A stretch of DNA of 64,000 nucleotides from a virus (lineage: Duplodnaviria; Caudoviricetes), in the IMG/VR virus record IMGVR_UViG_2700988807_000001, positions 12,798 through 76,797 of that record, one strand, 5' to 3'. The stretch's first letter is position 1, and each line of letters starts with the position of its first letter. The translations under genes were made by a program, and so were the position numbers. The notes under the pieces are model-generated. The model did not search any database. It was given only the letters and a program-made list of their open reading frames with translations, and was not told the DNA's origin. Shown here in pieces: positions 1,261 to 64,000 of the stretch.

Positions 1261-1401
1261 GTGAGCGATCTTAGTTATTCCGCCGTGAAGAGAAGTCCCG
1301 AAAAGCATCTCTTTGCTTTCGCTCTCTCGAGCCTTCCGAATCCAGACGACGCTGTGATTGACGGCGACAACACCGAAGGGGAAATCGATGGCAACGTTTG
1401 A
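1261..1401 (+). CDS. Small hypothetical protein
   Basis: GTG start after GAAAGG; fills the gap after terL. Confidence 0.4.
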   Translation: MSDLSYSAVKRSPEKHLFAFALSSLPNPDDAVIDGDNTEGEIDGNV

Positions 1402-1777
1402 TACCGAAGATTTTCTCGCCCACTACGGCGTTAAGGGAATGAAGTGGGGTGTAACTCGCGCCGCCCCGGAAGTTCGAGTTGCTCGAAAGGCTGCTCGAAA
1501 GCAAGCTCGTCGGGATCTCGACACAGTAATGGCTGTGAACGAGATCAAGCGTAGAGAAGCGGCCTCTACTATGACGTCTGGTAAGAAGTTTCTTTCCGAC
1601 ATGGGTGCCGTCGGTAGTGCTTACACCGGGACGAGCATTAGCCGTGCAGCGGGTTACAGCAGAGGGCAAGCTAAAGTTATCTCGATTCTAGGCGGCGGAC
1701 CTCTTTACGGACCTCTTACCGCCGGCGTTGCTGCGGAGCTCAAGATTCGCAAGGACGTCCGCTCCAGCATTCGATGA
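1388..1777 (+). CDS. HYGVKGMKWG-motif protein 1 (putative virion internal protein)
   Basis: N-terminal EDFLAHYGVKGMKWGV; basic and Gly/Ala-rich. Confidence 0.8.
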   Translation: MATFDTEDFLAHYGVKGMKWGVTRAAPEVRVARKAARKQARRDLDTVMAVNEIKRREAASTMTSGKKFLSDMGAVGSAYTGTSISRAAGYSRGQAKVISILGGGPLYGPLTAGVAAELKIRKDVRSSIR

Positions 1778-1791
1778 GGGGTGGGTGAATC

Positions 1792-2457
1792 ATGAGCTCA
1801 GACGTTGATTCCTTCCTTGCCCACTACGGTGTCAAGGGGATGAAGTGGGGTGTTCGTAAGAAAAGTTCTGGTGAATCTTCTGGAGGATCTTCTGAAGAGC
1901 ATCCCGTTCGGGACCATAACGGTAAACTTTCGCTGAAGAACCCTAAAGTTCGACGTGCTGCCGTTGTTGGTGCTTCTGTCGTTGCTATTGGCGCTGCAGC
2001 TTTTGTTGCTTCTCGATACATGGATAAACCAGTCGATACACAAAGCATCAAAAAAGGTGCCGAAAAGGTTGCCGATATTCTGCAGCAACCGACCGACATA
2101 ATCTACATGTCTAAGCCACATAAAGGTTCAGGATCCAGAACTACTCTAGGGTTTGTTTCTGAAGGACAAACCAAAGACTACTTCAAAATCTTCGATGACG
2201 CAGGTCTAAACTCTGATGGGTTTAAGCCGGGCGATTTCAAAAAGTTGAGTAACGGAAACGTTGCCACCTACATCGCGGACATGATGGGTCGAGTTGATAG
2301 TGCTGGACGAAAGGTTCCGCATGTTGTTTTGATTCCAGCCGACAAAGCAGTTGGTTTGAACAGCATGGAGGACGTGGTCAAGAAGTATGGGCCAGAGCTA
2401 GAGCGTAGGTATCAGACCTACTTGGAGGAACGCCGAAAGACGACGCCGGAAGTGTAG
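1792..2457 (+). CDS. HYGVKGMKWG-motif protein 2 with hydrophobic helix
   Basis: DSFLAHYGVKGMKWG, then AAVVGASVVAIGAAAFVA. Confidence 0.8.
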   Translation: MSSDVDSFLAHYGVKGMKWGVRKKSSGESSGGSSEEHPVRDHNGKLSLKNPKVRRAAVVGASVVAIGAAAFVASRYMDKPVDTQSIKKGAEKVADILQQPTDIIYMSKPHKGSGSRTTLGFVSEGQTKDYFKIFDDAGLNSDGFKPGDFKKLSNGNVATYIADMMGRVDSAGRKVPHVVLIPADKAVGLNSMEDVVKKYGPELERRYQTYLEERRKTTPEV

Positions 2458-2473
2458 GGAGGTGATTGATACC

Positions 2474-3307
2474 ATGTCTGATATTGATTCCTTCCTCGCC
2501 CACTACGGCGTCAAAGGAATGAAGTGGGGTGTCACAAAAGACCAGCATCGCGAGTACAAAGAAGTTGCTTCTCGTGACACCACAAACATGGTCAAACGAG
2601 CCGGCTCAACGGTTCAGATGACTCGCTACTTCTCTCAGGGCGGCACTCTGAAGAAGCAGCAGAAGTATACGCAGGATTGGTACGACAAGCTCGAAGGCGG
2701 AAAGGAGTTCATCGAAAAGGGTGCTTCTCTAAACCGCGTCGTTCGAGGTGTCGACGACAGAGCCCTTGCCGGTCGCTTGTATGTTTCCAAACTGAAGAGC
2801 GACAACGAGATGTACAAAGCTGTCATTCCTGCCGTTCAGAAGAAATTCGCTTTCGGTCAAAAGCAATACCACTCGGTGTATCAGGTGGAGCTCGAAACCA
2901 AGAAGCGATTGGCGATGCCTTCTCAGAAAGAACGCGTCGACGCCTTCATCGAAACCATTCAGACGCCTACCGGGCGAGAATGGATGAAGAAGAATGGCTA
3001 CAAGCGCGAGATCGATGAGCTCAACGCCAAGGAGATGGGCCTCAAGGCGTACAAGAAGTTCAATAAGTATGCTGGCGACCAGGGCTCCAAGATGAATGAC
3101 GCTTACTTCAACAAACTGAAGTCTCGCGGCTATGATGCTCTCATCGACGACAACGATGCGGGCATTTGGAGTAAGAAGCCGATGATTCTGCTGTCTCCGA
3201 GCAGCACAGTAAAGGTGAAGAGCGTTAGGCAACTTACTGCTGACGAGATCAACCAGGCTCAGCGAAACGTTCTCAAGGACCGTGACTTCAAGGAAAGGCG
3301 GTCGTGA
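2474..3307 (+). CDS. HYGVKGMKWG-motif protein 3 with putative ADP-ribosyltransferase-like domain
   Basis: HYG motif; C-domain LNRV..RLYVS..GYDALIDDND..PMILL is shared with the 3304 and 5404 proteins. Confidence 0.75.
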   Translation: MSDIDSFLAHYGVKGMKWGVTKDQHREYKEVASRDTTNMVKRAGSTVQMTRYFSQGGTLKKQQKYTQDWYDKLEGGKEFIEKGASLNRVVRGVDDRALAGRLYVSKLKSDNEMYKAVIPAVQKKFAFGQKQYHSVYQVELETKKRLAMPSQKERVDAFIETIQTPTGREWMKKNGYKREIDELNAKEMGLKAYKKFNKYAGDQGSKMNDAYFNKLKSRGYDALIDDNDAGIWSKKPMILLSPSSTVKVKSVRQLTADEINQAQRNVLKDRDFKERRS

Positions 3308-4350
3308 TGAGTGCAGACACTGACGACTTCCTTGCCCACTACGGTGTCAAGGGAATGAAGTGGGGCGTTATTCGGTCCGATCCTTCTGGCGGGAAGAAAA
3401 CCGGTTCTAGTGTCGACAGAGAATTTTCGGACGAAAGGGTCGCTAAAGCCCTTAGCGATTTTTACAAAACGAAAAGTTCTGAGCAGCTAAACGCCGAAGC
3501 CCAAGTCAAACTTCGCGCACAAGCCGATCGCGTTCATGCTCACAAACCCGAAAGCGATAAGTCTTCCGACACAGACGCTTTTCAGGAAAAACTTGTTCCT
3601 GGCGGTTACACTCGAAACCAAAAGATCGCAATTGGTGTTGGTGCTGCTGTCGCGGTCGGACTTCTCGGCTATACTGCTCACAAAACTGTCTTCGCAAGAC
3701 AAGGGACAGCAAGGGCTCTCGAGTCCGAGTGGTCTGGTTTGTTCGGGACAAAGGCGGACGTTTCCAGAGAACGTGCTGGCGAATTTCACGGCAGCTCTTT
3801 TGGTGGGCTTAAAAACGGAAAAGCTCTAGATCGTCCTGGATTTACGATTCCTAAATCGACAACGTTTCAGCGTCTATCCGGTCATGCTGAAAGTGGCGCT
3901 GATTATTCTTCAGGAACTTATGCGACGTTCTTGTCTAATGACAAAAGAGTTTATGGTCGATCTGAAGAATTCGGTACCAAGAAGTATACGCTTCAGTTTC
4001 AAGCGACAGAAGACATTCGCGTTCCGTCTACTAAGACGGTGCTTGACACTTTACGTAAAAACATGACCGAAAGCAATAAGGGCGTTGTGCCTAGAGACCA
4101 AGACGTCATGTTTTCCTACCACAGCATGTCTGGTGGCGAATGGAAGAGTTCCAATAGTCAACGTTTGATTGAAAGCCTTAAGAAGCAAGGTTACTCAGCG
4201 ATAGTTGACGACATGGATGCCGGCTATCTTGGGGATCTCCCGGTACTTTTCTTTGGGGAAACAAGAAGCGTTAAGGCGAAAAAGCGATCGATGCTTGACT
4301 ACGCTATGGATTATAACGCGGCACTACCTCTACTTCAAACCTATGCGTAA
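3304..4350 (+). CDS. HYGVKGMKWG-motif protein 4, TM helix plus ART-like domain
   Basis: HYG motif; IAIGVGAAVAVGLLGY; FQRL..TYAT..GYSAIVDDMD..PVLFF. Confidence 0.75.
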   Translation: MMSADTDDFLAHYGVKGMKWGVIRSDPSGGKKTGSSVDREFSDERVAKALSDFYKTKSSEQLNAEAQVKLRAQADRVHAHKPESDKSSDTDAFQEKLVPGGYTRNQKIAIGVGAAVAVGLLGYTAHKTVFARQGTARALESEWSGLFGTKADVSRERAGEFHGSSFGGLKNGKALDRPGFTIPKSTTFQRLSGHAESGADYSSGTYATFLSNDKRVYGRSEEFGTKKYTLQFQATEDIRVPSTKTVLDTLRKNMTESNKGVVPRDQDVMFSYHSMSGGEWKSSNSQRLIESLKKQGYSAIVDDMDAGYLGDLPVLFFGETRSVKAKKRSMLDYAMDYNAALPLLQTYA

Positions 4351-4406
4351 GTCTAGGCGGAACAACAAGAGCAGCGCCGGCAGAGATTTCCCCGAGGAGG
4401 TGAAAC

Positions 4407-5402
4407 GTGAGTGATACAAATTCGGATTACGTAGACGACTTCCTAGCCCACTACGGTGTCAAGGGGATGAAGTGGGGTGTCAAGAGATCTGATGCCCAGT
4501 TGGCAAGGGCGTCGGGAGGCCGTCAAAATGGGAGTGATGGCGCATCCGATTCTGCACCTAAGCAGGGGATGAGTCGTAAGAAGAAGATCGCTATCGGTGC
4601 CGGTGTTGTTGGTGGCGTAGCCCTGGTTGCTCTGGGCGCCTATGCCGTCAACAAGCAGATCGATACGAACAAACTTCGAACTCTTGGCGAGATGCGAAAG
4701 CAGGCCGAAGCAAATTTGGCTGGTAAAAAGGCCGCTCAAGCGCAGATCCAAGCCTTCGGTAAGAAGTCTAAGTGGGAGCTTGCGTCGGAACTTCCGGCCA
4801 AACCCAAGAAGTCGCCTATGACTCAGTCCGAGTACAAAGCCCAGGCACAAGCCAAGGTTAAGGCTCGGGCAGACGAGTTGATTGCTAAATCGGGCTCAAA
4901 GCCGATGGGTAAGGCGGCTCGTCGAAAGGCTGCTGAGCAGCAAGCAATTCAGGAACACTTCAACAAGTTTGCCAAGAAGTCTTTCCTGGATCTCGCTACC
5001 GAACTTCCTTCCGCACCGAAGCAACCTAAGTTGTCTCGCAAGGAAGCGAAGAGTCGAACTAACGAGGCGGTTCGAAGGGCTACTGAAACTCAGCAGATCA
5101 ACAGTAGGTTGAATGCTGTCCGAGGAATCCTTGACAAGTCGGGTTCTACTCCGGCTCGAAAGGCTGGCTCTTCGTACACTTCTCGCGATCGAAAGAACGA
5201 CACCAAGCTTTACGGTACCGAGGGCGCTGCTCGAATTCAGAAGCGAATCTCTAAGGGAACGCTCCTTTCCGAGGCACGACGCAAGGAAGCTACTCGACAG
5301 TATGGCGTGAAAGCCGCTCGAGTTGGAATGAACATCGGGTCGGCTGGACGTCGAGAGTCGAAAGACTACGAGCGTCTGAGGAAGCAAGCTGGAAGGGGCT
5401 AG
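4407..5402 (+). CDS. HYGVKGMKWG-motif protein 5, TM helix plus Lys/Ala/Arg-rich region
   Basis: HYG motif, hydrophobic helix, and internal repeat FGKKSKWELASELP / FAKKSFLDLATELP. Confidence 0.8.
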   Translation: MSDTNSDYVDDFLAHYGVKGMKWGVKRSDAQLARASGGRQNGSDGASDSAPKQGMSRKKKIAIGAGVVGGVALVALGAYAVNKQIDTNKLRTLGEMRKQAEANLAGKKAAQAQIQAFGKKSKWELASELPAKPKKSPMTQSEYKAQAQAKVKARADELIAKSGSKPMGKAARRKAAEQQAIQEHFNKFAKKSFLDLATELPSAPKQPKLSRKEAKSRTNEAVRRATETQQINSRLNAVRGILDKSGSTPARKAGSSYTSRDRKNDTKLYGTEGAARIQKRISKGTLLSEARRKEATRQYGVKAARVGMNIGSAGRRESKDYERLRKQAGRG

Positions 5403-5403
5403 G

Positions 5404-6486
5404 GTGACTGCGGTTGTGGAGATCGATGACTTCCTAGCCCACTACGGTGTCAAGGGAATGAAGTGGGGCGTTATTCGGGATCGAGATTCTGGATCCAGAT
5501 CTTCTGGTTCAGGAACTTCTGGGCCCGTTAGAACAAGACAAAGCACGGCCCTCGAAGCGAAGTATATTCAGAAGGGACACGACCTCGAAACCGCTCAGCA
5601 AAAGGCGGCTAAGCGAGCGAAAGTTCAAAAGGTTCTTCTAGTCGCCGGTGCAGTAACTCTCGCCGGCACAGCAGCTTATGTGGGACATAAAGAATACGGC
5701 AAACGATTCACGAACGTTGTTCTTGAAAAAGGCGCCGATCTAAAGTACATCAACGCTTTGGGTCCTCAGGCGGATTACAATCGTCGTTTGTATACCACAT
5801 TCAACGAGGGCGATACCAAAAAGTATCGTGGTATGTTGGCCAAGCAGCTTCAGAAGAATGGATTGAGTAGTAAAACCATTTATGAAACGACGCTTCGTGC
5901 GACAGAAACTATTAAGGCTCCTTCGCACCGAGAAGCCGAAAAGATTTACAAGGATCTGATCAAGCGGAAAGACATCTACCCCAAGGAATACGGGCGGATG
6001 CTCTCTTATAAAGAATTCAACGCCGGCCTGATTCGCAGTAGCGCGGACGGCAAGGAATTCTACAACGCTCTCAAGAAGAAGGGCTTCAATGCCGTTCTAG
6101 ACTCGAATGATCAGTTCGTTTCTGGTTACAACACGAAGAAGCCGTTGATTCTGTTCAACGCAGCTTCGAGCACAGTGAAGACTGGCGAAAAGATCGTCGA
6201 ACAGAAGACTATCGATGGGTTGTATGCTCGACAGGTCGCTGGGGTTATGGCCAGACAGTTTGCTCCAGTGGCAGCTGTTGGTGCGGCAGCCGTTGGCGCA
6301 CATAAGTACATTGAATCAAAGAACAAGTATGCTGTCGTGAACAAGTATTTGGATGAGCATCCGAATTCGAAGCGGTCCCCCGCAGAGATCTATGCGAGCC
6401 TTCAAGTGCAGCCGAACGGTCTGTATGAGGTTCCCGATCTTACCGCCGTCAGCAAGCCTCCTAAGAAGGGTGGTTCCAAGAAGTGA
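5404..6486 (+). CDS. HYGVKGMKWG-motif protein 6, TM helix plus ART-like domain
   Basis: HYG motif; VLLVAGAVTLAGTAAYVG; RLYTT..GFNAVLDSND..PLILF. Confidence 0.75.
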   Translation: MTAVVEIDDFLAHYGVKGMKWGVIRDRDSGSRSSGSGTSGPVRTRQSTALEAKYIQKGHDLETAQQKAAKRAKVQKVLLVAGAVTLAGTAAYVGHKEYGKRFTNVVLEKGADLKYINALGPQADYNRRLYTTFNEGDTKKYRGMLAKQLQKNGLSSKTIYETTLRATETIKAPSHREAEKIYKDLIKRKDIYPKEYGRMLSYKEFNAGLIRSSADGKEFYNALKKKGFNAVLDSNDQFVSGYNTKKPLILFNAASSTVKTGEKIVEQKTIDGLYARQVAGVMARQFAPVAAVGAAAVGAHKYIESKNKYAVVNKYLDEHPNSKRSPAEIYASLQVQPNGLYEVPDLTAVSKPPKKGGSKK

Positions 6487-6599
6487 AGTATCTATTGAAG
6501 GTTCTCGACTTCTTGATCGGGAATCGCCTTGATCGACCGGAGCTTCGAGAGCTTCATCGTCAGCACCAGATCAACGCTCGTCAAAATGGGAGTGAATAA
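6483..6599 (+). CDS. Small hypothetical protein (38 aa)
   Basis: GTGA overlap with the upstream stop and TAATG overlap with the downstream start. Confidence 0.45.
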   Translation: MKYLLKVLDFLIGNRLDRPELRELHRQHQINARQNGSE

Positions 6600-7138
6600 T
6601 GGATGATGTTGACGACTTCCTTGCCCACTACGGTGTCAAGGGAATGAAGTGGGGGCAACGTAAGAATAGTCTCCCTGGAGTCTCAGCCAAGACGAATCGC
6701 GATGCTCGAAAAGACGCGGAAGAGTTTGCCCGAGCAAAGATGTTCTACGGGACAGGCGCCGGTAATCGACGGAAGCTCATTAAGAGTACCGTCGAAGCTA
6801 AGTCGAAGGACCCCGCATACAAGTCTGCTTTCGACCATCATCTCGCCAACCAGGACATGGGGAAGCACGCGTCAAAGGCAAAGTCTGAACGTCGTCGTAA
6901 GGATGTCGGTGGAGGTGCGGCCAAGACGGCTCGCGGTGTTCATCGTCAGCTGACTGGCGGATTCGGAAGCGTTTCTTTGGCTTCGGCAGTGCTTGCCGGT
7001 GCCTACGTCGGAGCCCGTAAAACCGGCGTCGATCAAGTCATCATGAACGCTGCAAAGCAAAGACTCGGTGACGTGAAAAGCAAGCAGACCGACAAGAAGA
7101 ACGTCAACGAGTGGATGAAGAAGAACGGTTTCCTCTGA
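6599..7138 (+). CDS. HYGVKGMKWG-motif protein 7
   Basis: DDFLAHYGVKGMKWGQ; basic. Confidence 0.8.
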   Translation: MDDVDDFLAHYGVKGMKWGQRKNSLPGVSAKTNRDARKDAEEFARAKMFYGTGAGNRRKLIKSTVEAKSKDPAYKSAFDHHLANQDMGKHASKAKSERRRKDVGGGAAKTARGVHRQLTGGFGSVSLASAVLAGAYVGARKTGVDQVIMNAAKQRLGDVKSKQTDKKNVNEWMKKNGFL

Positions 7139-9320: not shown

Positions 9321-11480
9321 ATGACCCACATGAAGCCTGATTTCGGCGGGTATGCAACCAAGGCCAATCTCAGGTGCTCCGACGGTCGAACCATCCTTCC
9401 CGATGCTTTCAAGCATATGGATGGCATGAAGGTTCCTCTCGTATGGCAGCACGCCCACGGCGAACCCACTAACGTACTCGGTCATGCCCTTCTCGAAGCT
9501 CGTGACGGAAGCATGTACTGCCACGGGTTCTTCAACGAAACCGATGCCGGCAAGCATGCGAAGAATCTCGTCGCCCACGGCGATATCAACGCGCTTTCCA
9601 TTTACGCCAATAAGCTCGATGAGCACAACAGGGCGGTCAAGCACGGCCAGATCCGTGAAGTAAGTCTCGTGTTGGCTGGTGCAAATCCCGGAGCATTGAT
9701 TGACAATGTGAACATTGCCCATGGCGATGGTTCGATCACCACTCTGGACGATGATGTTCTTATCTACACAGACGAAACGATCGAACTCACCCATTCAGAA
9801 GAGGACAACATGACTATCGCACATGCTGACGATGAGGACCTCACCGTCCAGGACGTCTTCGAGACGATGAATGAGCAGCAGCAGGAAGTTGTTCATTTCC
9901 TGGTCGGAGAGGCTCTCGCTGGAGCCGGCGCCTCCGCTAGCCACGCTGCTGGTGACGAGGAAGACGACAGCGAAGATGACGGTAAGGACAAGACCGTCAA
10001 GGAGATCTTCGACAGCATGACTGAAGAGCAGCAGAATGTTGTCTTCTTCATGGTCGGCCAGGCTGTTCAGGAGGCCGAAAAGGCTTCCGCCAACAAGTCT
10101 TCGGACACCGAGTCCGGCGACGACAAGACCGCTAAGCACGCAGATACCCTCTCGGAAGGATCCAACATCATGAGCCACAACGTCTTCGAGCGCGCTGCCC
10201 TTTCGGCCGACGACACCAACGGCAAGGCCCTGTCCCACTCGGAGATCGTCGAGGCCACGTCGAGCATCTTCTCGGCTGCCGCTCGCACCGGCTCCATCAA
10301 GGAGGCCGCGGAGGAGTACGCCCTCAAGCACGGCATCGAGGACATCGACGTTCTGTTCCCGGACGCCAAGGCTGTCACCGCCACGCCCGAATTCATCAAG
10401 CGTCGCACCGAGTGGGTCTCCGAGGTCATGAGCGGTTCGCGCCACACCCCGTTCTCCCGCATCAAGAGCCTGACGGCCAACCTGACCTTCGACGATGCCC
10501 GCGCCAAGGGTTACGTCAAGGGCAACATGAAGAAGGAAGAGTTCTTCCGGGTCGCCAAGCGAGTCACCACCCCGCAGACCGTCTACAAGAAGCAGAAGCT
10601 GGATCGGGACGACGTCCTGGACATCACCGATTTCGACGTTGTCGCCTGGCTCAAGGGCGAGATGCGTCTCATGCTCGATGAGGAAATCGCTCGCGCGGTT
10701 CTCATCGGTGACGGTCGCTCGGCCGAGGACGAGGACAAGATCTCGGAGGAGCACATCCGTCCGATCGCTAACGATAGCGACCTCTTCGTCACCTACGTGA
10801 ACGTCGACCTGAGCGGCGGCACGGCTGACAAGATCGTCGATGCTCTGACCCTGCAGCGTCGTCACTACCGTGGTTCGGGCAACCCGACCTTCTTCACCAG
10901 CGAGACCATCCTCGCTCAGATGCTGCTGCACAAGGATTCGCTGGGTCGCCGCATCTACGCGACGACTGCCGACCTCGCGGCCGCTCTGCGCGTCTCGAAG
11001 ATTGTCACGGTCGAGATCATGGATCAGCCGTCGGTGGATGTCGTCGGCATCATGGTCAACCTGCAGGACTACACCATCGGTGCGGACAAGGGCGGCGACG
11101 TTTCGCTGTTCGACGACTTCGACATCGACTACAACCAGCACAAGTACCTGATCGAGTCCCGTCTGTCGGGCGCCCTCACGCGTCCCAAGTCGGCTCTCGT
11201 GGTCAAGGCTGTTGCCAAGTCCTCGACCCTCGTCACCCCCGAGGCTCCGACCTGGGATCCCGAGGACAAGACCGTGACGGTTCCGACCGTCGAGGGTGTC
11301 GTCTACAAGAACAAGAAGACGAACGCTACCCTGACCACGGCTTCGCCCGTCACCCTGAACGTCGGTGAAGAGCTGCACGTGATCGCCCTGCCGGCCTCGT
11401 CGAGCTACTACCTGGCCTCGACCGCTGAGGACGAGTTCCTCTTCGATTACGAGGATGGCATGCTCGGCGGCGCATTCTGA
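9321..11480 (+). CDS. Prohead protease / scaffold / major capsid protein fusion
   Basis: N-terminal HK97-type protease (VPLVWQH, ALSIYA, IREVSLVLAGANPGA), acidic scaffold repeats, capsid domain, strong codon bias. Confidence 0.9.
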   Translation: MTHMKPDFGGYATKANLRCSDGRTILPDAFKHMDGMKVPLVWQHAHGEPTNVLGHALLEARDGSMYCHGFFNETDAGKHAKNLVAHGDINALSIYANKLDEHNRAVKHGQIREVSLVLAGANPGALIDNVNIAHGDGSITTLDDDVLIYTDETIELTHSEEDNMTIAHADDEDLTVQDVFETMNEQQQEVVHFLVGEALAGAGASASHAAGDEEDDSEDDGKDKTVKEIFDSMTEEQQNVVFFMVGQAVQEAEKASANKSSDTESGDDKTAKHADTLSEGSNIMSHNVFERAALSADDTNGKALSHSEIVEATSSIFSAAARTGSIKEAAEEYALKHGIEDIDVLFPDAKAVTATPEFIKRRTEWVSEVMSGSRHTPFSRIKSLTANLTFDDARAKGYVKGNMKKEEFFRVAKRVTTPQTVYKKQKLDRDDVLDITDFDVVAWLKGEMRLMLDEEIARAVLIGDGRSAEDEDKISEEHIRPIANDSDLFVTYVNVDLSGGTADKIVDALTLQRRHYRGSGNPTFFTSETILAQMLLHKDSLGRRIYATTADLAAALRVSKIVTVEIMDQPSVDVVGIMVNLQDYTIGADKGGDVSLFDDFDIDYNQHKYLIESRLSGALTRPKSALVVKAVAKSSTLVTPEAPTWDPEDKTVTVPTVEGVVYKNKKTNATLTTASPVTLNVGEELHVIALPASSSYYLASTAEDEFLFDYEDGMLGGAF

Positions 11481-28375: not shown

Positions 28376-28400
28376 TCGCAGAAAAAACACGCGCTATAAT
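28376..28400 (+). promoter_or_regulatory. Promoter copy 7 (no mRNA leader; precedes tRNA-like RNA)
   Basis: TCGCAGAAAAAACACGCGCTATAAT. Confidence 0.75.
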
Positions 28401-28486
28401 GAAAGGAAAGACTCGTAGCTCAGTTGGAATGAGCGTCGTCAGCAATGACGAAGGTCGCAGGTTCGAGTCCTGCCGAGCTTTCCTTC
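28401..28486 (+). ncRNA. tRNA-like RNA lacking a canonical anticodon loop
   Basis: D arm GCTC-AGTTGGAAT-GAGC, T arm GCAGG-TTCGAGT-CCTGC, middle arm TCGTCA-GCAA-TGACGA, extended bulged acceptor-like stem, no CCA. Confidence 0.75.
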
Positions 28487-55950: not shown

Positions 55951-56901
55951 ATGAACAACGACACAATCGCCGCCGAACTGGGGCGGTCTCTCAGTGAGAT
56001 TCGGAACACGCTTCTCAAAGAGTTCACGAAGATGGCGGCACCTGAGGGAACGTTCGACGAGGTCTCTACGCATTCGATGCTGGTGGAGTACATCGAGATC
56101 TGCCGGCAGTACCGGGAAGAAGCCGCTACCAAAATCGAGATGCTGATTCAAGAGGACTTGAAGCATCCGAGACTCAAGCCTGAACTAGTCGTCCCAGAAG
56201 TGGTCGATGCTCGGGAATCTCTGAATGCGATCGTCGTTTCATGCGGAGGCGAAGTCATAGAGGACGAGAACCTTCGCCGCTTGGCTCAGCGAGCGGCAGA
56301 CTTGTCTCGGAACCGAGCGCGAGTGATGAGCAACAATGAGGTCGAGAAGGTCAACGAACACATGATGTGGACTTACGTCGCAGCGCTCGAAAATGTTCTC
56401 GGGATCTACACGCTAAGGCCCACGTTGGACAGTCGCAAGCAGGCCATCATCGACAAGCTCGCAGGAACCAGTCGCATAGATGTTCTAGATCGTGTTCTCG
56501 AAACTCTGGGTGGCACTCCAGATCCTAACGAGGATAAGGCTGCACTCAAGGCTCGTGTAACTCGAATGACGAGGGAGGCGTTGGGGATGACCAACGGGAT
56601 CGAGACGAACCTCTCCTACAGCGATGGTTACAAAGCGTCCGAGGAGATTCGCAAGAGTCTCGTGGGGATTCTTGAAGCTGCAGGCAAGACGGTGGAGCCG
56701 GATGAGTCGCTGTTCTATATTTCCGGTCGAGTGCAGGAACTCGTGGGGCAGCTGACCAAGTGCATCAGTACTCCGAGTCTGGAGGCAATCGAGAACGGTC
56801 TCAAGAAGATCATTCAGGATGCCGGCGTTACGGTTCGCGACGATGCGAGTCTGGTCGAGTTGGCGGCTCGTGTCCAAGCTCTGGTCGAGAAGACTCACTG
56901 A
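55951..56901 (+). CDS. Helical repeat protein, paralog of 54539
   Basis: ELGRSL..RNTLL; repeated L..I...G.....ESL..LA.R. Confidence 0.7.
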   Translation: MNNDTIAAELGRSLSEIRNTLLKEFTKMAAPEGTFDEVSTHSMLVEYIEICRQYREEAATKIEMLIQEDLKHPRLKPELVVPEVVDARESLNAIVVSCGGEVIEDENLRRLAQRAADLSRNRARVMSNNEVEKVNEHMMWTYVAALENVLGIYTLRPTLDSRKQAIIDKLAGTSRIDVLDRVLETLGGTPDPNEDKAALKARVTRMTREALGMTNGIETNLSYSDGYKASEEIRKSLVGILEAAGKTVEPDESLFYISGRVQELVGQLTKCISTPSLEAIENGLKKIIQDAGVTVRDDASLVELAARVQALVEKTH

Positions 56902-56910
56902 TTCACACCC

Positions 56911-57011
56911 ATATTTACAGGCTCGTAGGGGGCTCTAAACTGCTCTCTACGGGCCTGTAATATGGGGAATGCACAATCCTGTGAAGTAGGGGTCTCAAGG
57001 CTTCACAGAGG
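56911..57011 (+). ncRNA. Putative two-hairpin RNA; second loop antisense to the cassette leader
   Basis: TTACAGGCTCGTAGGGGGC/GCTCTCTACGGGCCTGTAA stem, then CTGTGAAG-TAGGGGTCTCAAGG-CTTCACAG. Confidence 0.5.
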
Positions 57012-57020
57012 CGCTCAGCG

Positions 57021-57045
57021 TCGCATGAAAAACACGTCATATGAT
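57021..57045 (+). promoter_or_regulatory. Promoter copy 15 (TATGAT variant)
   Basis: TCGCATGAAAAACACGTCATATGAT with the same 14-nt spacer. Confidence 0.65.
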
Positions 57046-57109
57046 GAGAACCCACTAACGAAACCAGACTCAGGCCCTCAACTGAGATCCAGGTCGTTGG
57101 TGGGTTTTC
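57046..57109 (+). ncRNA. Putative small hairpin ncRNA
   Basis: GAGAACCCACTAACGA/TCGTTGGTGGGTTTTC stem enclosing CTCAG-GCCCTCAA-CTGAG. Confidence 0.55.
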
Positions 57110-57176
57110 GTCTTCCCTACCAACCCTATATTTTTGTCATAGGGTATGGTCTCGCAAACTTATGAAAGGCAACCCT

Positions 57177-57356
57177 ATGCACTACGACAGCAAAGCAGCC
57201 CAGTACGACGCCGAGGTTCCGACTTTGGATGAGAGCACGTCTCCCGAGTCGTACACCCGCACACGCAAGTGTATCGAGTTCACGGCGTTCTTCTTGCTCA
57301 GCTATGCCGTCGCGCTGGTGGTCATCTACACGCTTCTCAAACTGTTCGGCGTATAG
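57177..57356 (+). CDS. Small membrane protein
   Basis: GAAAGG RBS; C-terminal TM helix. Confidence 0.6.
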   Translation: MHYDSKAAQYDAEVPTLDESTSPESYTRTRKCIEFTAFFLLSYAVALVVIYTLLKLFGV

Positions 57357-57369
57357 AAAGGAGTAGAGG

Positions 57370-58998
57370 ATGCTGTTCGGCTCCCACGACTTCCAACTCG
57401 ACGACACGCAAAGCTGTGGGGATCGCATCCAACAACTCCGTATGCGGATCCTGGTCCACTCATATTTGTACTACGAGCTGGATCAGAACATTCTCACAGA
57501 TCGGGAGTTCGACACTCTCGCCTACGAGCTGGTCGACTTACAGAAGCGATATCCTGAGGTCTCGGAAGCGGTGTGGTACGAGCGTGACGCTTTCAGAGAC
57601 TTCGACGGCTCCACGGGATTCCATCTCCCATACAAGAAGAACGAAGTAGTTCCCCAGATCGCACAGATCCTCATAGACACTGTGGGGAACGAGACGCCGG
57701 CCGAGGCCGATGACGAGCACTACTATATTCCCCGGCTCGACGAGCTACACAAGACAGAAGAGAAGAAGGAGAGACCCATGGGAGGTGTGCAACTTTATCC
57801 ACATCAACAGGAGGCTGTAGAGAAGCTGTCCAACGGCAAGGTACTGGTCGGAGGTGTAGGGACGGGCAAGACGATCACGTCGCTCGTATATTTCTACACC
57901 AAGGTCATGGGCGGCACGTTGGGTGACCCCGCATCCATCAAGACACCGAAGGACATCTACGTCTTCACCACGGCCCGAAAGCGTGACGAGCTGGACTGGC
58001 AGAAGGACGCAGCCAAGCTGATCATATCTCGGGAACGGGACGCTTCTGTCTGTGGTATCAAGCTCACGGTCGACTCCTACAACAACATCAAGAAGTATGC
58101 CAGCGTCAAGGATGCATTCATCATTCTCGACGAGCAGCGCATGGTGGGATCCGGTGCATGGACACGCGCCTTCATATCCATGGCCAAGCACAACGAGTGG
58201 ATCATGCTCAGTGCCACACCGGGTGACAAGTGGGAGGACTATATTCCACTGTTCATCGCCAACGGGTTCGTGAAGAATCGCACCGAGTTCAAGCGGAACC
58301 ACATCGTCTACGCCTCCTACTCCAAGTTCCCGAAGGTGGAGCGATATTTGGAGGTCGGCAAGCTGCTCAAGTGGCGTCGTCAGATTCTGGTAGAGATGCC
58401 GTACGCCCGACACACCACGCGCAATCTCCATGACGTGACAGTTCCGCACGACAAGGAGAAGATGGATCTGGTCGTCAAGAAGCGGTGGAACCCGTACGAG
58501 AACCGCCCACTCAAGGACGTCGCCGAGATGTTCATCTGCATGCGGAGGGTGGCATATTCTGACCAGTCCCGTCGAGAGGCTGTGATCCAGCTACTCAAAC
58601 ACAACCACCCCCGACTGATCGTGTTCTACAACTTCAACTACGAGTTGGAGATTCTACGGACGATCGCCAAGGACATGCCAGGTTTGGAGGTTGCCGAGTG
58701 GAATGGCCAGAAGCACGAGCAGGTTCCGACTGGGGAGCACTGGCTATATCTTGTGCAGTACGTGGCTGGAGCTGAGGCGTGGAACTGCGTTGCTACGGAC
58801 GCGATCTGCTTCTACTCCCAGACGTACTCGTACAAGAACTTCGAACAAGCACAGGGAAGGATCGACAGGCTCAATACGCCCTTCAAGCAACTGCACTACT
58901 ACATTTTGAAGAGCACGAGCCAGATTGATCTTGCCGTTTCTCGGTCACTTTCTGAAAAGAGGTCTTTCAACGAGTCCGAAATGTCCGACTTTTGGTGA
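57370..58998 (+). CDS. SF2 helicase with N-terminal NAD-ligase Ia-like domain
   Basis: LYPHQ, GVGTGKT, ILDEQ, LSATP, QAQGRIDR; N-terminal HSYLYY..LTDREFD.L..EL..L. Confidence 0.85.
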   Translation: MLFGSHDFQLDDTQSCGDRIQQLRMRILVHSYLYYELDQNILTDREFDTLAYELVDLQKRYPEVSEAVWYERDAFRDFDGSTGFHLPYKKNEVVPQIAQILIDTVGNETPAEADDEHYYIPRLDELHKTEEKKERPMGGVQLYPHQQEAVEKLSNGKVLVGGVGTGKTITSLVYFYTKVMGGTLGDPASIKTPKDIYVFTTARKRDELDWQKDAAKLIISRERDASVCGIKLTVDSYNNIKKYASVKDAFIILDEQRMVGSGAWTRAFISMAKHNEWIMLSATPGDKWEDYIPLFIANGFVKNRTEFKRNHIVYASYSKFPKVERYLEVGKLLKWRRQILVEMPYARHTTRNLHDVTVPHDKEKMDLVVKKRWNPYENRPLKDVAEMFICMRRVAYSDQSRREAVIQLLKHNHPRLIVFYNFNYELEILRTIAKDMPGLEVAEWNGQKHEQVPTGEHWLYLVQYVAGAEAWNCVATDAICFYSQTYSYKNFEQAQGRIDRLNTPFKQLHYYILKSTSQIDLAVSRSLSEKRSFNESEMSDFW

Positions 58999-59009
58999 AA
59001 ATCTGAAAA

Positions 59010-59231
59010 CTTAATACCCTATAGAAAAGGCGAAATTATAGGGTATTAAGATTCGGGATTTTGGGGTGTTTTGGGGTGTTTTTGCGGTGGGCTTTGAGAT
59101 TTGGCAGTGAACCTTGGTTGACGACCTGGGAAAACGACAAAATTCTGCCAAAAACTAACCCTAAACCTTTCCCTAGAAAGAACAACTTAATACCCTATAA
59201 TAGTGGGTATATAGGTTATTAAGTTGGTTCT
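59010..59231. repeat. AT-rich intergenic region with two CTTAATACCCTATA inverted repeats (origin candidate)
   Basis: Inverted repeats at 59010-59050 and 59184-59225; TTTTGGGGTG direct repeat between them. Confidence 0.6.
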
Positions 59232-59293
59232 ACAAAAGTTTTTTTCCGGACAAATCTTGGCAAAAGTGACGAGCACACAGGAACGAGACAAAC

Positions 59294-59785
59294 ATGCCTG
59301 AAATCTGGATGCCTATCCGTGATTTTCCAAAGTATCTCATCAGTCCAGAAGGAGCCATCAAGAACAAGCAAAGGCGATTGCTCGTTAAAACCAGCCAGAA
59401 CGCTCAGGGCGTCGTTATGGTGAAGCTTATGGGGGATGATGGCCGACACACCCGTTCAGTCGCTCTGCTGGTCGCTCAGGCCTATCTACCGCCCCCTCGT
59501 AATCCCTCCTACAACTCGGTCATATTCTTGGATGGTGATCGAACCAACTGTTCGGCCCTGAATTTGATGTGGCGTCCTCGTTGGTATGCGGTTCGCTACC
59601 ACAAGATGTTCGAGCGTGAACCCATGAACATCTCTGTGATGATCGAGGACACGGGCGAGACCTTCGGCACTCTTCGAGAGGCCTGCATGAAGTATGGGCT
59701 CGACGAGCAGTATACCTATATCGACATGCTCAACGGTGATCCCTGTTTCCACTACGGATACCGGTTTCGTCACCTAAGTGAGTAA
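59294..59785 (+). CDS. NUMOD4 / HNH-like endonuclease (HNH residues look degenerate)
   Basis: EIWMPIRDFPKYLISPEG; VAQAYL..FLDGDRTNCSALNLMW. Confidence 0.7.
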   Translation: MPEIWMPIRDFPKYLISPEGAIKNKQRRLLVKTSQNAQGVVMVKLMGDDGRHTRSVALLVAQAYLPPPRNPSYNSVIFLDGDRTNCSALNLMWRPRWYAVRYHKMFEREPMNISVMIEDTGETFGTLREACMKYGLDEQYTYIDMLNGDPCFHYGYRFRHLSE

Positions 59786-59798
59786 AGTGGGTATTTTA

Positions 59799-59823
59799 CC
59801 GCACACAAAACATGGTATATAAT
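59799..59823 (+). promoter_or_regulatory. Promoter copy 16 (CCGCA variant) upstream of nuclease-RNAP genes
   Basis: CCGCACACAAAACATGGTATATAAT with a 14-nt spacer. Confidence 0.6.
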
Positions 59824-59886
59824 AGAAGGGATAGAATACCTCTGCCACGAATTCGTGGTTTTAACTTTTGGTCAGGAGGCCTTGCG

Positions 59887-60216
59887 GTGGCAAGAGAAAG
59901 CGTTTACCAGGCAAGACTCATCAAGAAGCTGCATCAGCTCTATCCCGGATGCATCGTACTGAAGAATGACTCCAGCTACATGCAGGGCATTCCTGATCTC
60001 ACCATCCTCTATCAGAAGAACTGGGCCGCACTCGAAGTAAAGGCTAAGGAGCCTAACAGCTCCACTATATTTCAGCCTAACCAGGAATGGTTCATCGAGA
60101 CCATGAATGACATGTCGTTCGCAGCCTGCATCTATCCCGAGAACGAGAAGGAAGTACTTCGTGGACTTCAACAAGCACTGGCACCTCGAAGGCAAGCACG
60201 CGTTCCTGTCCGCTAG
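59887..60216 (+). CDS. VRR-NUC / resolvase-like PD-(D/E)xK nuclease
   Basis: ES.YQ..GIPDL..ALEVK..QPNQEWF. Confidence 0.75.
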   Translation: MARESVYQARLIKKLHQLYPGCIVLKNDSSYMQGIPDLTILYQKNWAALEVKAKEPNSSTIFQPNQEWFIETMNDMSFAACIYPENEKEVLRGLQQALAPRRQARVPVR

Positions 60217-60715
60217 TCAGTACCATTGGATTCGGTATGACGAGGAAAAGCTTGCCGGCACGTTCCTCAGACACAAAGCTAAGCAGCGTGGAACCGAGCT
60301 TCATGCGCTTGCGTACGATCTTATTCGGTTTGGCGTCAACCTTCCGAAGAACAACAAGACTCTGAATCGGTATGTCAACGATGCGATCGGTTATCGTATG
60401 ACTCCCGAACAGGTGCTGGTATATTCTGACAACGCTTTCGGTACTGCGGATACAATCTCGTTCCGAAAGAACAAACTCCGTGTGCATGACTTGAAGACTG
60501 GCGAGCATCCGGCCAACGGTGAGCAGCTCGAAGTCTACAACGCGTTCTTCTGCCTGGAGTACATGATCAAGCCCTTCGAGATCGAGATCGAGAATCGGAT
60601 CTATCAGAATGATGATTGCATCGTGTTCGAACCCGATCCTGCCAAGATCACGCACATCATGGATCGAATCATCACGTTCGACAAGATCATCGACAGCATC
60701 AAGTCGGAAGTCTGA
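60161..60715 (+). CDS. PD-(D/E)xK exonuclease-like protein (Cas4/RecB-like)
   Basis: HAFLSAS, GTELH, FGTAD, HDLKTG, QLEVY. Confidence 0.7.
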   Translation: MDFNKHWHLEGKHAFLSASQYHWIRYDEEKLAGTFLRHKAKQRGTELHALAYDLIRFGVNLPKNNKTLNRYVNDAIGYRMTPEQVLVYSDNAFGTADTISFRKNKLRVHDLKTGEHPANGEQLEVYNAFFCLEYMIKPFEIEIENRIYQNDDCIVFEPDPAKITHIMDRIITFDKIIDSIKSEV

Positions 60716-60745
60716 ACCAACCATATTTGAACGGAGGAACGCAGA

Positions 60746-63460
60746 GTGCTAATCGATGAAGATGACTACTTGGCGCACTACGGTATTCTGCGTCGTTCGG
60801 GCAGATACCCTTGGGGTTCAGGTGGTACTCCTGAGCAGAACCATCGATCCTTCTACGGCATGATCGAAGCTATGCGTGCCGAAGGTATGAGTGATGCGGA
60901 GATCGCTAAGGGTTTCGGTATCTCGACTCGTGACTACCTCGCTCTCAAGTCCATCGCGGGCAACGAGATCAAGGCTGCCAATCGTGCTCGAGCTGAGATC
61001 CTTCGAGCTACCGGCATGTCGAACAAGGCAATCGCTGAAGAGATGGGTCTCGCTGGCGAGTCTTCGGTTCGTTCTCTGTTGGCTCCTGGTGCTGCCATGC
61101 GAGCTGATCAGAACCAGGCAGTTGCCGATCTTCTGAAGGATCAGATCAAGGATGGTGGATACCTCGACATCGGAGCCGGCAACGAGCTCTATGTTGGGAT
61201 GTCTCGTACCCAGTTCGATACTGTGATCGCTGGTCTTCGTAATGAAGGTTACGTCGTCCATCCGGTTCAGGTCGATCAGGTGGGCACCAACACCAAGACT
61301 CTGATCAAGGTTCTTGCTCCTGAAGGCACCGAATACAAGGACATCGTTACGAGTCCCGAAGACATCAAGTCCATCGCTGTCAAGCTCAAGGATGGCGAGA
61401 TCGAACACATCCGTCCTCCCGAGATGCTGGACTCCAAGCGAGTCAAGGTTGTCTATGCAGAGGATGGCGGCACTGAGGCTGACGGTACTATGTACATCCG
61501 TCCTGGTGTCAATGATCTGGATCTTGGTGGCGCTCAGTATGCGCAGGTTCGTATCGCTGTTGATGGCACGCACTACCTCAAGGGTATGGCTGTCTACAAG
61601 AGCGACCTTCCTCCTGGCGTCGACGTTGTGTTCAACACCAACAAGTCGGACACGGGCAACAAGCTCGATGCTATGAAGAAGATGAACCGGCTTCCTGAGC
61701 TCGATGCCAACGGCAAGGCAGTCAAGGATGCAAAGGGTGAGACTGTCTTCACTGACAAGATCGACATCTCTAATCCTTTCGGTGCAACCATCAAGCCTGG
61801 TGGTCAGCGTGGGGTACTGAATGTTGTGAATGAGGAAGGCGACTGGAACAAGTGGTCTAAGAACCTCGCGTCTCAGATGCTTTCGAAGCAGCAGCCTACG
61901 CTGGCTAAGGAACAGTTGGATCGTCTCTTCGGAGACAAGAACTCTGAGCTCAATGAGATCATGGCTCTGACCAACCCTGCAGTCAAGAAGAAGTTGCTTC
62001 AGTCCTATGCCGATGGTGTGGATGCTGATGCCGTACATCTTCAGGCAGCTGCCATGCCTCGTCAGGCAACACAGGTCATCCTTCCTGTGAGTGGTCTCAA
62101 GGACACGGAGATCTATGCTCCGAACTTCCGCAATGGTGAGCGCGTCGCTCTGATTCGCTACCCTCATGGTGGAACCTTCGAGATCCCTGAGCTCACTGTG
62201 AACAACCGACATCCTGAAGCTAGGAAGCTTCTTGGTACCTCGCCTAAGGATGCTGTCGGTATCAACTCCAAGGTTGCTGAACGTCTGTCTGGTGCGGACT
62301 TCGATGGCGATACTGTTCTCGTCATCCCTAACAGTTCGGGTAAGATCAAGAGCACGCCAGCTCTCGAGGGTCTTAAGAACTTCGACCCTAAGGCTAGGTA
62401 CCCAGCTTACGAGGGTATGAAGCCTATGACTGCTAAGCAGAAGCAGCAGGAGATGGGCAGTGTCTCTAACCTGATCACCGACATGACAATCAAGGGTGCC
62501 AACTCTTCCGAGATTGCTGCAGCTGTTCGTCACTCGATGGTTGTGATTGATGCTGAGAAGCATAAGCTCAACTACAAACAGTCTGCCATTGACAACAACA
62601 TTGTCAGTCTCAAGAAGAAGTACCAGGCTCGACCAGATGGTACTCCTGGTGGTGCGGCAACTCTGATCTCTCGGAGTACTTCTGAGGTTCGAGTCAACGA
62701 GCGCAAGATCGGTTACAAGATCAATCCCGACACAGGCGAGAAGATCTTTACCGAGACAGGCAAGGGTTACACCAAGACCAAGGTCAACCCTAAGACTGGT
62801 GTGATTACGGAGAAGTTCATCCCCCGTACACAGAAGTCTACTAAGGGTGCGGAAGCTAAGGATGCCCACTCTCTTTCTTCGGGTACTCGAATGGAAGAGA
62901 TCTATGCGGATCATTCGAATCGTCTGAAGGCTTTGGGTAACTCTGCTCGGAAGTCTTTGATGGCTACGAAGTCGACACCCTATTCCGACTCTGCTCGTAA
63001 GGTGTACGCCACCGAAGTAAAGTCCCTTGATGCGAAGCTCAACATCGCACTCAAGAACGCACCCCGTGAAAGGCAGGCCCAGCTCATAGCCAATGCCACC
63101 ATCAAACAGAAGCGTGATGCTAACCCGAACATGGAGCATGACGAACTGAAGAAGGTGAAGGCTAAAGCATTGGTCACTGCTCGTGCTCGAACAGGCGCAA
63201 GCAAAGAGCTGATCAACATCACTGACAGTGAGTGGGAGGCTATCCAGGCTGGAGCAGTGAGTACATCTAAGCTCACTAAGATCCTGGACAACACCAACCT
63301 TGATCGAGTCAAGGAGCTGGCTACCCCTCGCAAGAACACAGTGATGACCGACCTCAAGCAGCAGCGTGCTCGTCAGCTACTCGCAAGCGGGCGCACTCAG
63401 TCTGAGGTTGCCGACATCCTTGGCGTTCCCCTATCCACCCTCTCGTCTAGCTTGAAGTAA
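60746..63460 (+). CDS. Putative single-subunit two-barrel RNA polymerase with HTH domains and N-terminal HYG tag
   Basis: QVRI..KG, LIRYP, RLSGADFDGD (GADFDGD at 62291-62311), VIDAEKH; HTHs at both ends; starts DYLAHYGILRRSGRYPWG. Confidence 0.75.
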   Translation: MLIDEDDYLAHYGILRRSGRYPWGSGGTPEQNHRSFYGMIEAMRAEGMSDAEIAKGFGISTRDYLALKSIAGNEIKAANRARAEILRATGMSNKAIAEEMGLAGESSVRSLLAPGAAMRADQNQAVADLLKDQIKDGGYLDIGAGNELYVGMSRTQFDTVIAGLRNEGYVVHPVQVDQVGTNTKTLIKVLAPEGTEYKDIVTSPEDIKSIAVKLKDGEIEHIRPPEMLDSKRVKVVYAEDGGTEADGTMYIRPGVNDLDLGGAQYAQVRIAVDGTHYLKGMAVYKSDLPPGVDVVFNTNKSDTGNKLDAMKKMNRLPELDANGKAVKDAKGETVFTDKIDISNPFGATIKPGGQRGVLNVVNEEGDWNKWSKNLASQMLSKQQPTLAKEQLDRLFGDKNSELNEIMALTNPAVKKKLLQSYADGVDADAVHLQAAAMPRQATQVILPVSGLKDTEIYAPNFRNGERVALIRYPHGGTFEIPELTVNNRHPEARKLLGTSPKDAVGINSKVAERLSGADFDGDTVLVIPNSSGKIKSTPALEGLKNFDPKARYPAYEGMKPMTAKQKQQEMGSVSNLITDMTIKGANSSEIAAAVRHSMVVIDAEKHKLNYKQSAIDNNIVSLKKKYQARPDGTPGGAATLISRSTSEVRVNERKIGYKINPDTGEKIFTETGKGYTKTKVNPKTGVITEKFIPRTQKSTKGAEAKDAHSLSSGTRMEEIYADHSNRLKALGNSARKSLMATKSTPYSDSARKVYATEVKSLDAKLNIALKNAPRERQAQLIANATIKQKRDANPNMEHDELKKVKAKALVTARARTGASKELINITDSEWEAIQAGAVSTSKLTKILDNTNLDRVKELATPRKNTVMTDLKQQRARQLLASGRTQSEVADILGVPLSTLSSSLK

Positions 63461-63469
63461 GGAGTAGAC

Positions 63470-63712
63470 ATGGATGACTACATGCTCTCGACATCTGACA
63501 ATCCATTCAATCCTTACACACAGTGGGAACAGTGGTATGCCTTTGATGCAGCGGCCGGGTACCATACCCCTGCCTACCTGGCAAGGATTGTGGTAACATC
63601 TCACGAGCTGAGCGAGGCTGACCAATTGCTTGCGATTCAGCAAGGGATTGATGAGATCCTCGAAATGAACTTGACTGGAAACTACATCAAGGTCATGAAC
63701 CCCGCAGCCTGA
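63470..63712 (+). CDS. Conserved small acidic protein
   Basis: AAGGAG RBS; MLSTSDNPFNPY..W..FD..GY.T..YLARI. Confidence 0.7.
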   Translation: MDDYMLSTSDNPFNPYTQWEQWYAFDAAAGYHTPAYLARIVVTSHELSEADQLLAIQQGIDEILEMNLTGNYIKVMNPAA

Positions 63713-63991
63713 GAAAGCCCTACCCCACATGCCGAGCCCCATCAGTCTCTAGAAGTTTTAGGGATTGGTGGGGTTTGGTATGCTGCATCCAGAACACAGA
63801 TTCTTAAATTTTGCCCATATTCCCCATAACCATGGTCGCAATTTTTATATCCCACACCCCTGTGTGTAGAAAATTTCGGAATTGAAACACGGCATCTCAA
63901 AATTTGCGGTGTTTTGTTAGCTTTCCGAAGTTTGTGTTGAATGTTCGAAGGTAGGGGGGAGGGGTCTCGCAAACGGCACCCCCCTCTGCAT

Positions 63992-64000
63992 CGCCGCCCT
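63992..64000 (+). other. Probable genome right end / 9-nt cohesive overhang
   Basis: Window ends in CGCCGCCCT after a ~290-bp non-coding tract. This resembles 3' overhangs I recall for related actinophages (not verified). Confidence 0.5.

Follow-up and report, generated by a model that had tools for sequence, protein, structure and literature searches.

A predicted single-chain two-barrel RNA polymerase of siphophages, its fused DNA-binding modules, and a co-occurring promoter-like element

We analyzed a window of 64,000 nucleotides (nt) of viral DNA (bases 12798 to 76797 of the 76,797-base virus record IMGVR_UViG_2700988807_000001), which is about 86% identical to the DNA of Rhodococcus phage ReqiPoco6. 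Unless another phage is named, coordinates are those of the window, and the features given lie on its plus strand. The gene located at 60746 to 63460, as delimited by the open reading frame (ORF) call, encodes a protein of 904 amino acids belonging to the family of phrog_4291 and ORF75 of phage 1706. On the basis of a structural model, this protein is very probably a single-chain RNA polymerase (RNAP) containing two double-psi beta-barrels, with QDE-1 and plant RDR2 as its closest solved relatives. The explanation that best accounts for the observations as a whole, and that we consider probable, is that the protein is a packaged, sigma-independent early transcriptase. The two-barrel RNAP identity is already published and present in databases, and the family is known yet biochemically uncharacterized. 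Thus, the value of the present analysis lies in a testable mechanism rather than in gene discovery. The conserved pairing of the polymerase with a promoter-like element and the fusion of a polymerase to a portal protein are new.

The AlphaFold2 model, built on 111 diverse relatives, had a predicted local distance difference test (pLDDT) score of 91.4 and a predicted template modeling score of 0.84. In this model, two double-psi beta-barrels surround the active site, the feature that defines the superfamily. Foldseek returned 25 matches at E ≤ 0.001, all of which, among the matches listed, were QDE-1, the polymerases 8f5m (P74 gp62) and 8f72 (gp64) of Thermus phages, or plant RDR2. The next, weaker matches were phi14:2 gp66 (E = 3.2e-3), P23-45 gp96 (4.6e-3), and large subunits of cellular polymerases. 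The predicted catalytic core (61409 to 62968; residues 222 to 741) comprises a first barrel containing D246, R269, and K279, connector helices, a second barrel containing R471-x-P473 and D518-x-D520-x-D522, and a helical hairpin (residues 563 to 606). Section 8 of PMC2919709 describes eight residues that are invariant in two-barrel RNAPs, namely, an aspartate and two basic residues in the first barrel and R-x-P plus D-x-D-x-D in the second barrel, corresponding to D709, R738, K743, R962, P964, D1007, D1009, and D1011 of QDE-1. Candidates for all eight (D246, R269, K279, R471, P473, D518, D520, and D522) occur in the right order in the phage protein. In an alignment of 111 relatives displaying 45 to 54% identity with the query, residues Q267, R269, K279, G280, R471, P473, H474, G516, D518, D520, G521, D522, M570, G571, N575, L576, D579, D602, and K605 were invariant (111/111), D246 was kept in 110 relatives, and F519 was kept in 107.

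An initial annotation of this DNA had proposed a single-subunit two-barrel RNAP from a series of motifs in the 904-residue ORF. All of these motifs are present, in the order in which they had been given: DDYLAHYG (residues 6 to 13), YAQVRI (265 to 270), LKG (278 to 280), ALIRYP (468 to 473), the metal-binding loop RLSGADFDGD (513 to 522; 62282 to 62311), MGSVSNLI (570 to 577), VIDAEKH (600 to 606), and the C-terminal helix-turn-helix (HTH) motif GRTQSEVADILGVPLSTL (882 to 899). A further motif, SGRYPWGSG, lies at residues 18 to 26. The fold match and the conserved catalytic residues bear the proposal out.

Several results nonetheless weigh against this assignment or narrow it. The equivalence of the eight residues was set by motif, order, and spacing rather than by superposition of coordinates. 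The match to the Pfam RdRP family (PF05183) was confined to residues 509 to 609, a stretch that includes the metal-binding loop, and, with 16.2 bits (E = 0.0045), fell below the cutoff of 23.8. Searches of PDB sequences, whether started from the protein or from the family profile, returned HTH proteins only and no polymerase, indicating that sequence alone is too short-ranged to reach the polymerase fold. An NCBIfam search gave nothing meaningful. No biochemical test of any family member, whether of RNA synthesis, template preference, or promoter binding, was found in the literature. The comparison of the 111-sequence profile with the single YonO sequence by hhalign gave a probability of 1%, and the protein was therefore not assigned to the YonO family. 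A fold search of BFVD again returned polymerases, none of which could be named as YonO, and no solved YonO structure was among the fold matches. The initial annotation had called the enzyme YonO-type and had named YonO, QDE-1, and phi14:2 gp66 as structures for comparison. QDE-1 and, more weakly, gp66 were indeed retrieved, whereas the term YonO-type is appropriate for the kind of enzyme but probably not for the family, since the family profile misses the YonO sequence.

The protein matched phrog_4291 in PHROGs over nearly its entire length (E = 0; 1347.5 bits; residues 4 to 904 on profile positions 7 to 906 of 909) and ORF75 of phage 1706 over the full length (38% identity; 587 bits by BLASTP). 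It displays the traits of this family: like ORF75, it has an L-x-H-x-G ... SGRY-x-WGSG peptide at the N terminus, a DFDGD motif, and HTHs at either end, and its gene follows one for a Cas4-like exonuclease at the right end of the genome; no difference was found at the family level. A homologue was detected by tblastn in 248 phage records and spanned 80% of the length or more in all but one of these (247), with Arthrobacter (95 records), Gordonia (55), Streptomyces (54), and Lactococcus (13) among the hosts. At 90% identity, the family comprises at least 8000 clusters, all of the candidates scored passing E ≤ 1e-5. At 50% identity, 2131 representatives had E ≤ 0.001 and 870 had E ≤ 1e-30. Among the 40 phage records listed with their annotation, 26 designate the product as an HTH or DNA-binding protein, 7 as hypothetical, 5 as an RNA-dependent RNA polymerase, 1 as a structural protein, and 1 as "transcription factor D5", in keeping with the earlier remark that such a gene could easily be annotated only as an HTH protein. 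Many of the 248 deposited genomes are actinobacteriophages from teaching collections, in which the gene bears no label other than "HTH DNA-binding protein". In 2010, Ruprich-Robert and Thuriaux (PMC2919709) distinguished five "YonO-like" two-barrel families, one of them being that of the phage 1706 protein. For the same phage group, bioRxiv 10.1101/842583 reported an HHpred match to Pfam RdRP (95.68%), HTHs at either terminus, and a DxDGD loop and proposed a "putative RNA polymerase". The accessible text of both sources contains no mention of promoters, and that of the latter none of packaging. PHROGs and RefSeq name the family "RNA-dependent RNA polymerase". The qualifier "RNA-dependent", inherited from the Pfam family, is probably a misnomer; in view of the double-stranded DNA genome of the phage, DNA is the most likely template.

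DNA-binding modules are fused to both ends of the polymerase. Two tandem HTH units (60836 to 61087), with helices at residues 36 to 57 and 93 to 112 and a long helix after each, are followed by a winged-helix-like domain (61088 to 61366; residues ~115 to 207). The C-terminal HTH (63356 to 63445; residues 871 to 900) scored 28.7 bits for HTH_23 (cutoff, 24.6) and 27.2 for HTH_7 (cutoff, 23.8). Of the three HTHs proposed in the initial annotation, the C-terminal one thus exceeded the Pfam cutoffs, whereas the two N-terminal segments fell below them, yet match several HTH families. The picture of a compact RNAP with built-in HTHs is retained, and we infer that the HTHs serve in promoter recognition.

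The putative target is a repeated promoter-like element. The pattern YCGCA-N14-TATRAT occurs 16 times in the window, exclusively on the plus strand, versus 0.06 expected. Fourteen copies located between 26104 and 35983, before small genes just past the tail genes, have the form TCGCA-N6-ACAC-N4-TATAAT-GAGACCCCTA followed by a ribosome-binding site (RBS) and are candidate promoters; most of them run on as GAGACCCCTA(C/T)GAAAGGA and then ATG. The pattern scan revealed a copy before the helicase gene (57021 to 57045) and a variant copy, CCGCA...TATAAT without GAGA, at 59799 to 59823, upstream of the nuclease genes and of the polymerase gene, ~950 nt before the latter. The structural half of the genome, its first 38.9 kb, contains no copy. 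The copy at 28376 is followed, within the stretch from 28376 to 28460, by a tRNA-like start (GTAGCTCAGTTGG) instead of the usual leader and ATG, and ReqiPoco6 has a "tRNA-OTHER" at the matching place. The copy at 35633 is devoid of RBS and ATG.

An element of this architecture, its ACA occupying positions 7 to 9 of the spacer, was found in ReqiPoco6 (10 copies in the first 45 kb), Crocheter (7 by the strict and 8 by the relaxed pattern), Argan (6), Scap1 (4), Camille (4), and D_HF4_2 (3, relaxed). Lactococcus phages P1046 (9 copies) and 1706 (10 copies) have a variant, C(G/A)CA-N14-TATAGT-AGA, with equal spacing. In these relatives, all copies are on the plus strand and mostly just past the tail genes. 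As a single control, ReqiPine5, which infects the same host and was not among the records retrieved with the polymerase as the query, had no element in its first 50 kb. When viral contigs were scanned for CGCA-N6-ACA-N5-TATAATGAGA, at least 117 stretches matched, 80 of which were listed; the 37 different contigs that reached 38 kb or more were taken on. Among the matches listed, the polymerase was encoded by 34 of these 37 element-bearing contigs (46 to 72% identity) and by all 23 of the records that were at least 90% complete; the three records lacking the polymerase were 66 to 78% complete.

A sigma-70-type −35 box is separated from the −10 box by 16 to 18 nt. CGCA, at 14 nt from TATAAT, is therefore too close to act as such a box. 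Both this short spacing and the constant shape of the element across hosts of two phyla point to a phage-encoded reader. An obvious candidate is the polymerase, given the DNA-binding modules fused to it, and we think it probable that it fulfils this role. This reading is tempered by two considerations: the co-occurrence of promoter and gene could reflect shared descent in one phage supercluster, and the host sigma-A holoenzyme could itself use the TATAAT box. The words promoter and transcription do not appear in the accessible text of bioRxiv 10.1101/842583, and no literature search aimed at the element was made.

The first 30 residues of the polymerase (60746 to 60835) form a peptide containing an acidic stretch, L-x-H-Y-G, and SGRYPWGSG, which is a candidate signal for head loading and processing. 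The peptide is conserved on par with the active site, G13, S18, G19, R20, and G24 being invariant and H11 being present in 109 of the 111 relatives. It was modeled as floppy, with pLDDT scores of 48 to 54 in the full model and of 31 to 38 in a model of the N-terminal part. A peptide that is floppy yet invariant has the signature of a short motif binding something in trans.

Seven ORFs located between the terminase and portal genes (1358 to 7138) start with D[DS]FLAHYGVKGMKWG, a tag that matches Pfam DUF7211 with 51 to 58 bits (cutoff, 27). The initial annotation had proposed that the polymerase shares an LAH-YG tag with these head-module proteins. The likeness was retained for the first half of the tag, (D/E)-x-L-x-H-Y-G-(I/V), which is the only part common to the polymerase and DUF7211: a local hhalign comparison of the peptide with 26 DUF7211 tags gave a probability of 93.7 (P = 1.9e-7) over 13 columns. 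DUF7211 was also found over the cutoff in all five other polymerase-bearing phage records that were checked, as well as in ReqiPoco6 and Crocheter, and a variant form was found in 1706, a co-occurrence that is not independent evidence because these phages are related. Covariation of the residue preceding the histidine in the polymerase and in DUF7211 was considered and was not convincing: the two agreed in the Lactococcus phages (LQH/LQH) and in several other phages (LAH/LAH), whereas elsewhere LAH was paired with LGH, LKH, or LEH. No mention of DUF7211, PF23847, or KGMKWG was found in the literature searched.

The position of such peptides is not always N-terminal. Two polymerase relatives (P0133 and P0132) have ~165 extra residues before the peptide, indicating that it can be internal; in P0133, the extra part is a 2′-5′ RNA ligase-like domain (PF13563; 27.7 bits). 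DUF7211-like motifs are likewise internal in some proteins. ORF7 of phage 1706 (2501 to 3889) has two such motifs, near residues 35 and 184, and gp015 of ReqiPoco6 (about 15122) has one ~345 residues into the open frame. These internal motifs hint at polyproteins cut at the tag. A candidate processing enzyme is encoded at 9321 to 11480 by a gene for a prohead protease/major capsid fusion protein (phrog_3270; Phage_capsid), which would also provide the capsid interior; PF04586 is present in its relatives, which bear the name "major capsid and protease fusion protein". The spacer between protease and capsid contains two similar acidic helices and hydrophobic-x-His sites, which the L-x-H of the tag resembles. 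Among 53 relatives, H131, H303, and H334 are invariant, and H155 is nearly so. The last of these sites, YALKH|GIEDID, could be the start of the mature capsid protein. Several of the seven tagged proteins (1792 to 7138) have a hydrophobic, membrane-helix-like stretch ~50 to 130 residues past the tag, for example, KIAIGVGAAVAVGLLGYTA. To judge from their sequence, these stretches would suit ejection proteins entering the host membrane.

The deposited label of phage 1706 ORF75 is "structural protein", as is that of ORF7, with its two DUF7211-like motifs, and of small ORFs located outside the morphogenesis module. Because such labels stand on genes whose products would not be predicted to be structural, they suggest virion proteomics, and they reportedly stem from virion mass spectrometry in a 2008 study. 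Five long fused forms of the polymerase were found, each with a single member sequence. In one metagenomic ORF (P0215), a Pfam portal domain (residues 76 to 389; 102.7 bits) is joined to a polymerase devoid of the N-terminal peptide and of the HTH pair. The block following the portal domain is also present in two other long forms (P0221 and P0392). The fourth form (P0393) is a fusion of the polymerase to DUF5906, a domain that occurs in primase-helicase proteins, and the fifth (P0394) has a C-terminal extension on the polymerase. Together, the label in phage 1706, the portal fusion, the floppy invariant peptide, and the promoter-like elements before the presumed early genes make packaging plausible.

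Other observations weigh against packaging. The label "structural protein" is an annotation, a large and abundant protein can copurify with virions, and the label in ReqiPoco6 was transferred by similarity. The portal fusion is a singleton: P0215 and P0221 are each represented by a single sequence on one contig, and no second copy of the portal fusion was found in viral contigs, the search with P0215 having returned the polymerase part only (11 loci; query residues ~1053 to 1789). Another long form has DUF5906 as its fusion partner. The N terminus of the polymerase scored 15 bits on Pfam DUF7211 (PF23847; E = 0.016; model positions 5 to 13 of 25), below the cutoff, and global hhalign comparison of the peptide with the DUF7211 tags gave a probability of 12.6; the likeness is limited to the 13 columns. 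We hold virion carriage of the polymerase to be an evenly balanced question.

RNA polymerases carried in the virion are known from phages N4 and phiKZ. [quoted passage not shown] These two proteins and gp64 of P23-45 are all among the fold matches of the phage protein, gp66 and gp96 matching more weakly than QDE-1. They differ from the 904-residue enzyme in size and composition, since gp66 has ~2,170 residues (2,166 in the crystal model) and gp96 forms a fusion with the tape measure, whereas the enzyme described here has fused HTH and winged-helix modules and a short N-terminal peptide. QDE-1 and RDR2 match the fold, yet they display only 12 to 15% sequence identity, with the Pfam RdRP match under the cutoff, lack HTH modules and the N-terminal peptide in the aligned parts, and belong to the biology of RNA silencing. 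YonO of the Bacillus prophage SPbeta is likewise a single-chain two-barrel enzyme from a phage of a Gram-positive host, where it acts as a DNA-dependent RNAP (PMC5467207), but it lacks the shared N-terminal peptide and has no hhalign similarity to the polymerase family profile. For the peptide, the closest parallel is functional: in phage T4, unrelated internal head proteins begin with a short capsid-targeting sequence that is cut by the prohead protease. The arrangement is similar and there is no sequence relation; loading and cutting of the DUF7211 proteins or of the polymerase peptide are putative.

In the mechanism that we propose, the first barrel would contribute D246, R269, and K279 to the catalytic center and the second barrel the D518-x-D520-x-D522 loop and R471-x-P473, and the enzyme would act as a DNA-dependent transcriptase. 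The four modules (two HTH units, the winged helix, and the C-terminal HTH) would stand in for a sigma factor and guide the enzyme to CGCA-N6-ACA-N5-TATAAT-GAGA before early single-gene cassettes. The N-terminal peptide would most likely load the enzyme into the procapsid, where the protease-capsid fusion protein would perhaps trim it. Injected along with the DNA, the enzyme would then initiate early transcription independently of the host polymerase, as happens in N4, phi14:2, and P23-45. In a broader form of this proposal, which we put forward tentatively, a large family of sigma-independent RNAPs of ~900 residues would reside in siphophage heads, be loaded by a DUF7211-related peptide, and read the three-part promoter from Lactococcus phages to actinobacteriophages.

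The main competing explanation, which we consider rather unlikely, is a polymerase that is not carried in the virion, as for YonO or T7. According to this scheme, the host polymerase would transcribe the gene, the enzyme made in the cell would take over the cassettes or later genes, and the peptide would bind a partner other than the capsid. The location of the gene in the replication module, beside nucleases, and the variant promoter-like copy ~950 nt upstream fit an enzyme made after infection equally well. The match to the DUF7211 tag is below the threshold, and YonO is reportedly not a virion protein. As the best-studied bacterial single-chain two-barrel enzyme, YonO provides a precedent for a DNA-dependent RNAP encoded by a prophage (PMC5467207). 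The deposition of the phage 1706 homologue as a structural protein and the existence of a portal-polymerase fusion argue against this scheme, as does the distribution of the element, which precedes the first genes past the tail genes and is absent from the structural half. In addition, on the genome circularized at cos, the polymerase gene immediately precedes the virion genes and shares their strand, a location that suits a protein made for packaging.

Two other explanations concern the function of the core itself. Synthesis of RNA for replication or recombination, such as primers or R-loops at an origin, rather than of mRNA is improbable, although the conserved neighbors of the gene (helicase, HNH endonuclease, VRR-Nuc-type endonuclease, and Cas4-like exonuclease) and the long form fused to DUF5906 would agree with such a role, and the nearest solved relative, QDE-1, accepts DNA as well as RNA templates (PMC9508822). 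Crocheter, however, encodes a large DNA polymerase, and bioRxiv 10.1101/842583 names a DNA primase/polymerase; several fused DNA-binding modules and a repeated strand-specific element before RBS-bearing genes better fit transcription. That the protein is solely an HTH regulator with an inactive polymerase-like core would agree with the label in 26 of the 40 listed records, but appears most improbable, since conservation of the three aspartates and of the other catalytic candidates across 111 relatives, down to 45% identity, argues against a dead enzyme.

If active, the protein would be the smallest known two-barrel transcriptase carrying its own promoter-recognition modules, and the conserved promoter-like element offers a ready template for in vitro assays. 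If the packaged early transcriptase is indeed carried in the virion, ordinary siphophages of Gram-positive bacteria would join podophages, jumbo phages, and Thermus phages in the strategy of bringing one's own polymerase, and the DUF7211 peptide would be tied to a cargo of measurable function. The polymerase and its promoter would then constitute a portable, host-independent unit for early transcription, and the peptide would be a natural tag for protein delivery.

The polymerase gene starts with a GTG codon preceded by a GGAGGAA Shine-Dalgarno sequence 6 nt upstream and is the final large gene at the right genome end, after genes for an HNH endonuclease, a VRR-Nuc-type endonuclease (phrog_93), and a Cas4-like exonuclease. 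This neighborhood recurs in relatives infecting Gordonia, Arthrobacter, Streptomyces, Microbacterium, and Lactococcus and in one oral phage. An ORF for 80 amino acids follows the polymerase gene (63470 to 63712); it matched phrog_4303 (E = 8.6e-37) and gave no match in a Pfam search. A small ORF occupies the same place in every relative inspected (ReqiPoco6, Crocheter, Argan, Scap1, P1046, Camille, D_HF4_2, and 1706), and its product could be a cofactor of the polymerase. In the region from 56500 to 64000, neither sigma-70-type promoters (7 versus 4.9 in shuffled sequences) nor terminators (6 versus 5.8) were in excess. The helicase gene (57370 to 58998) encodes an unusual combination of an N-terminal DNA ligase-like NAD+-binding domain (PF22745; 112.5 bits) followed by weak DEAD/ResIII matches.

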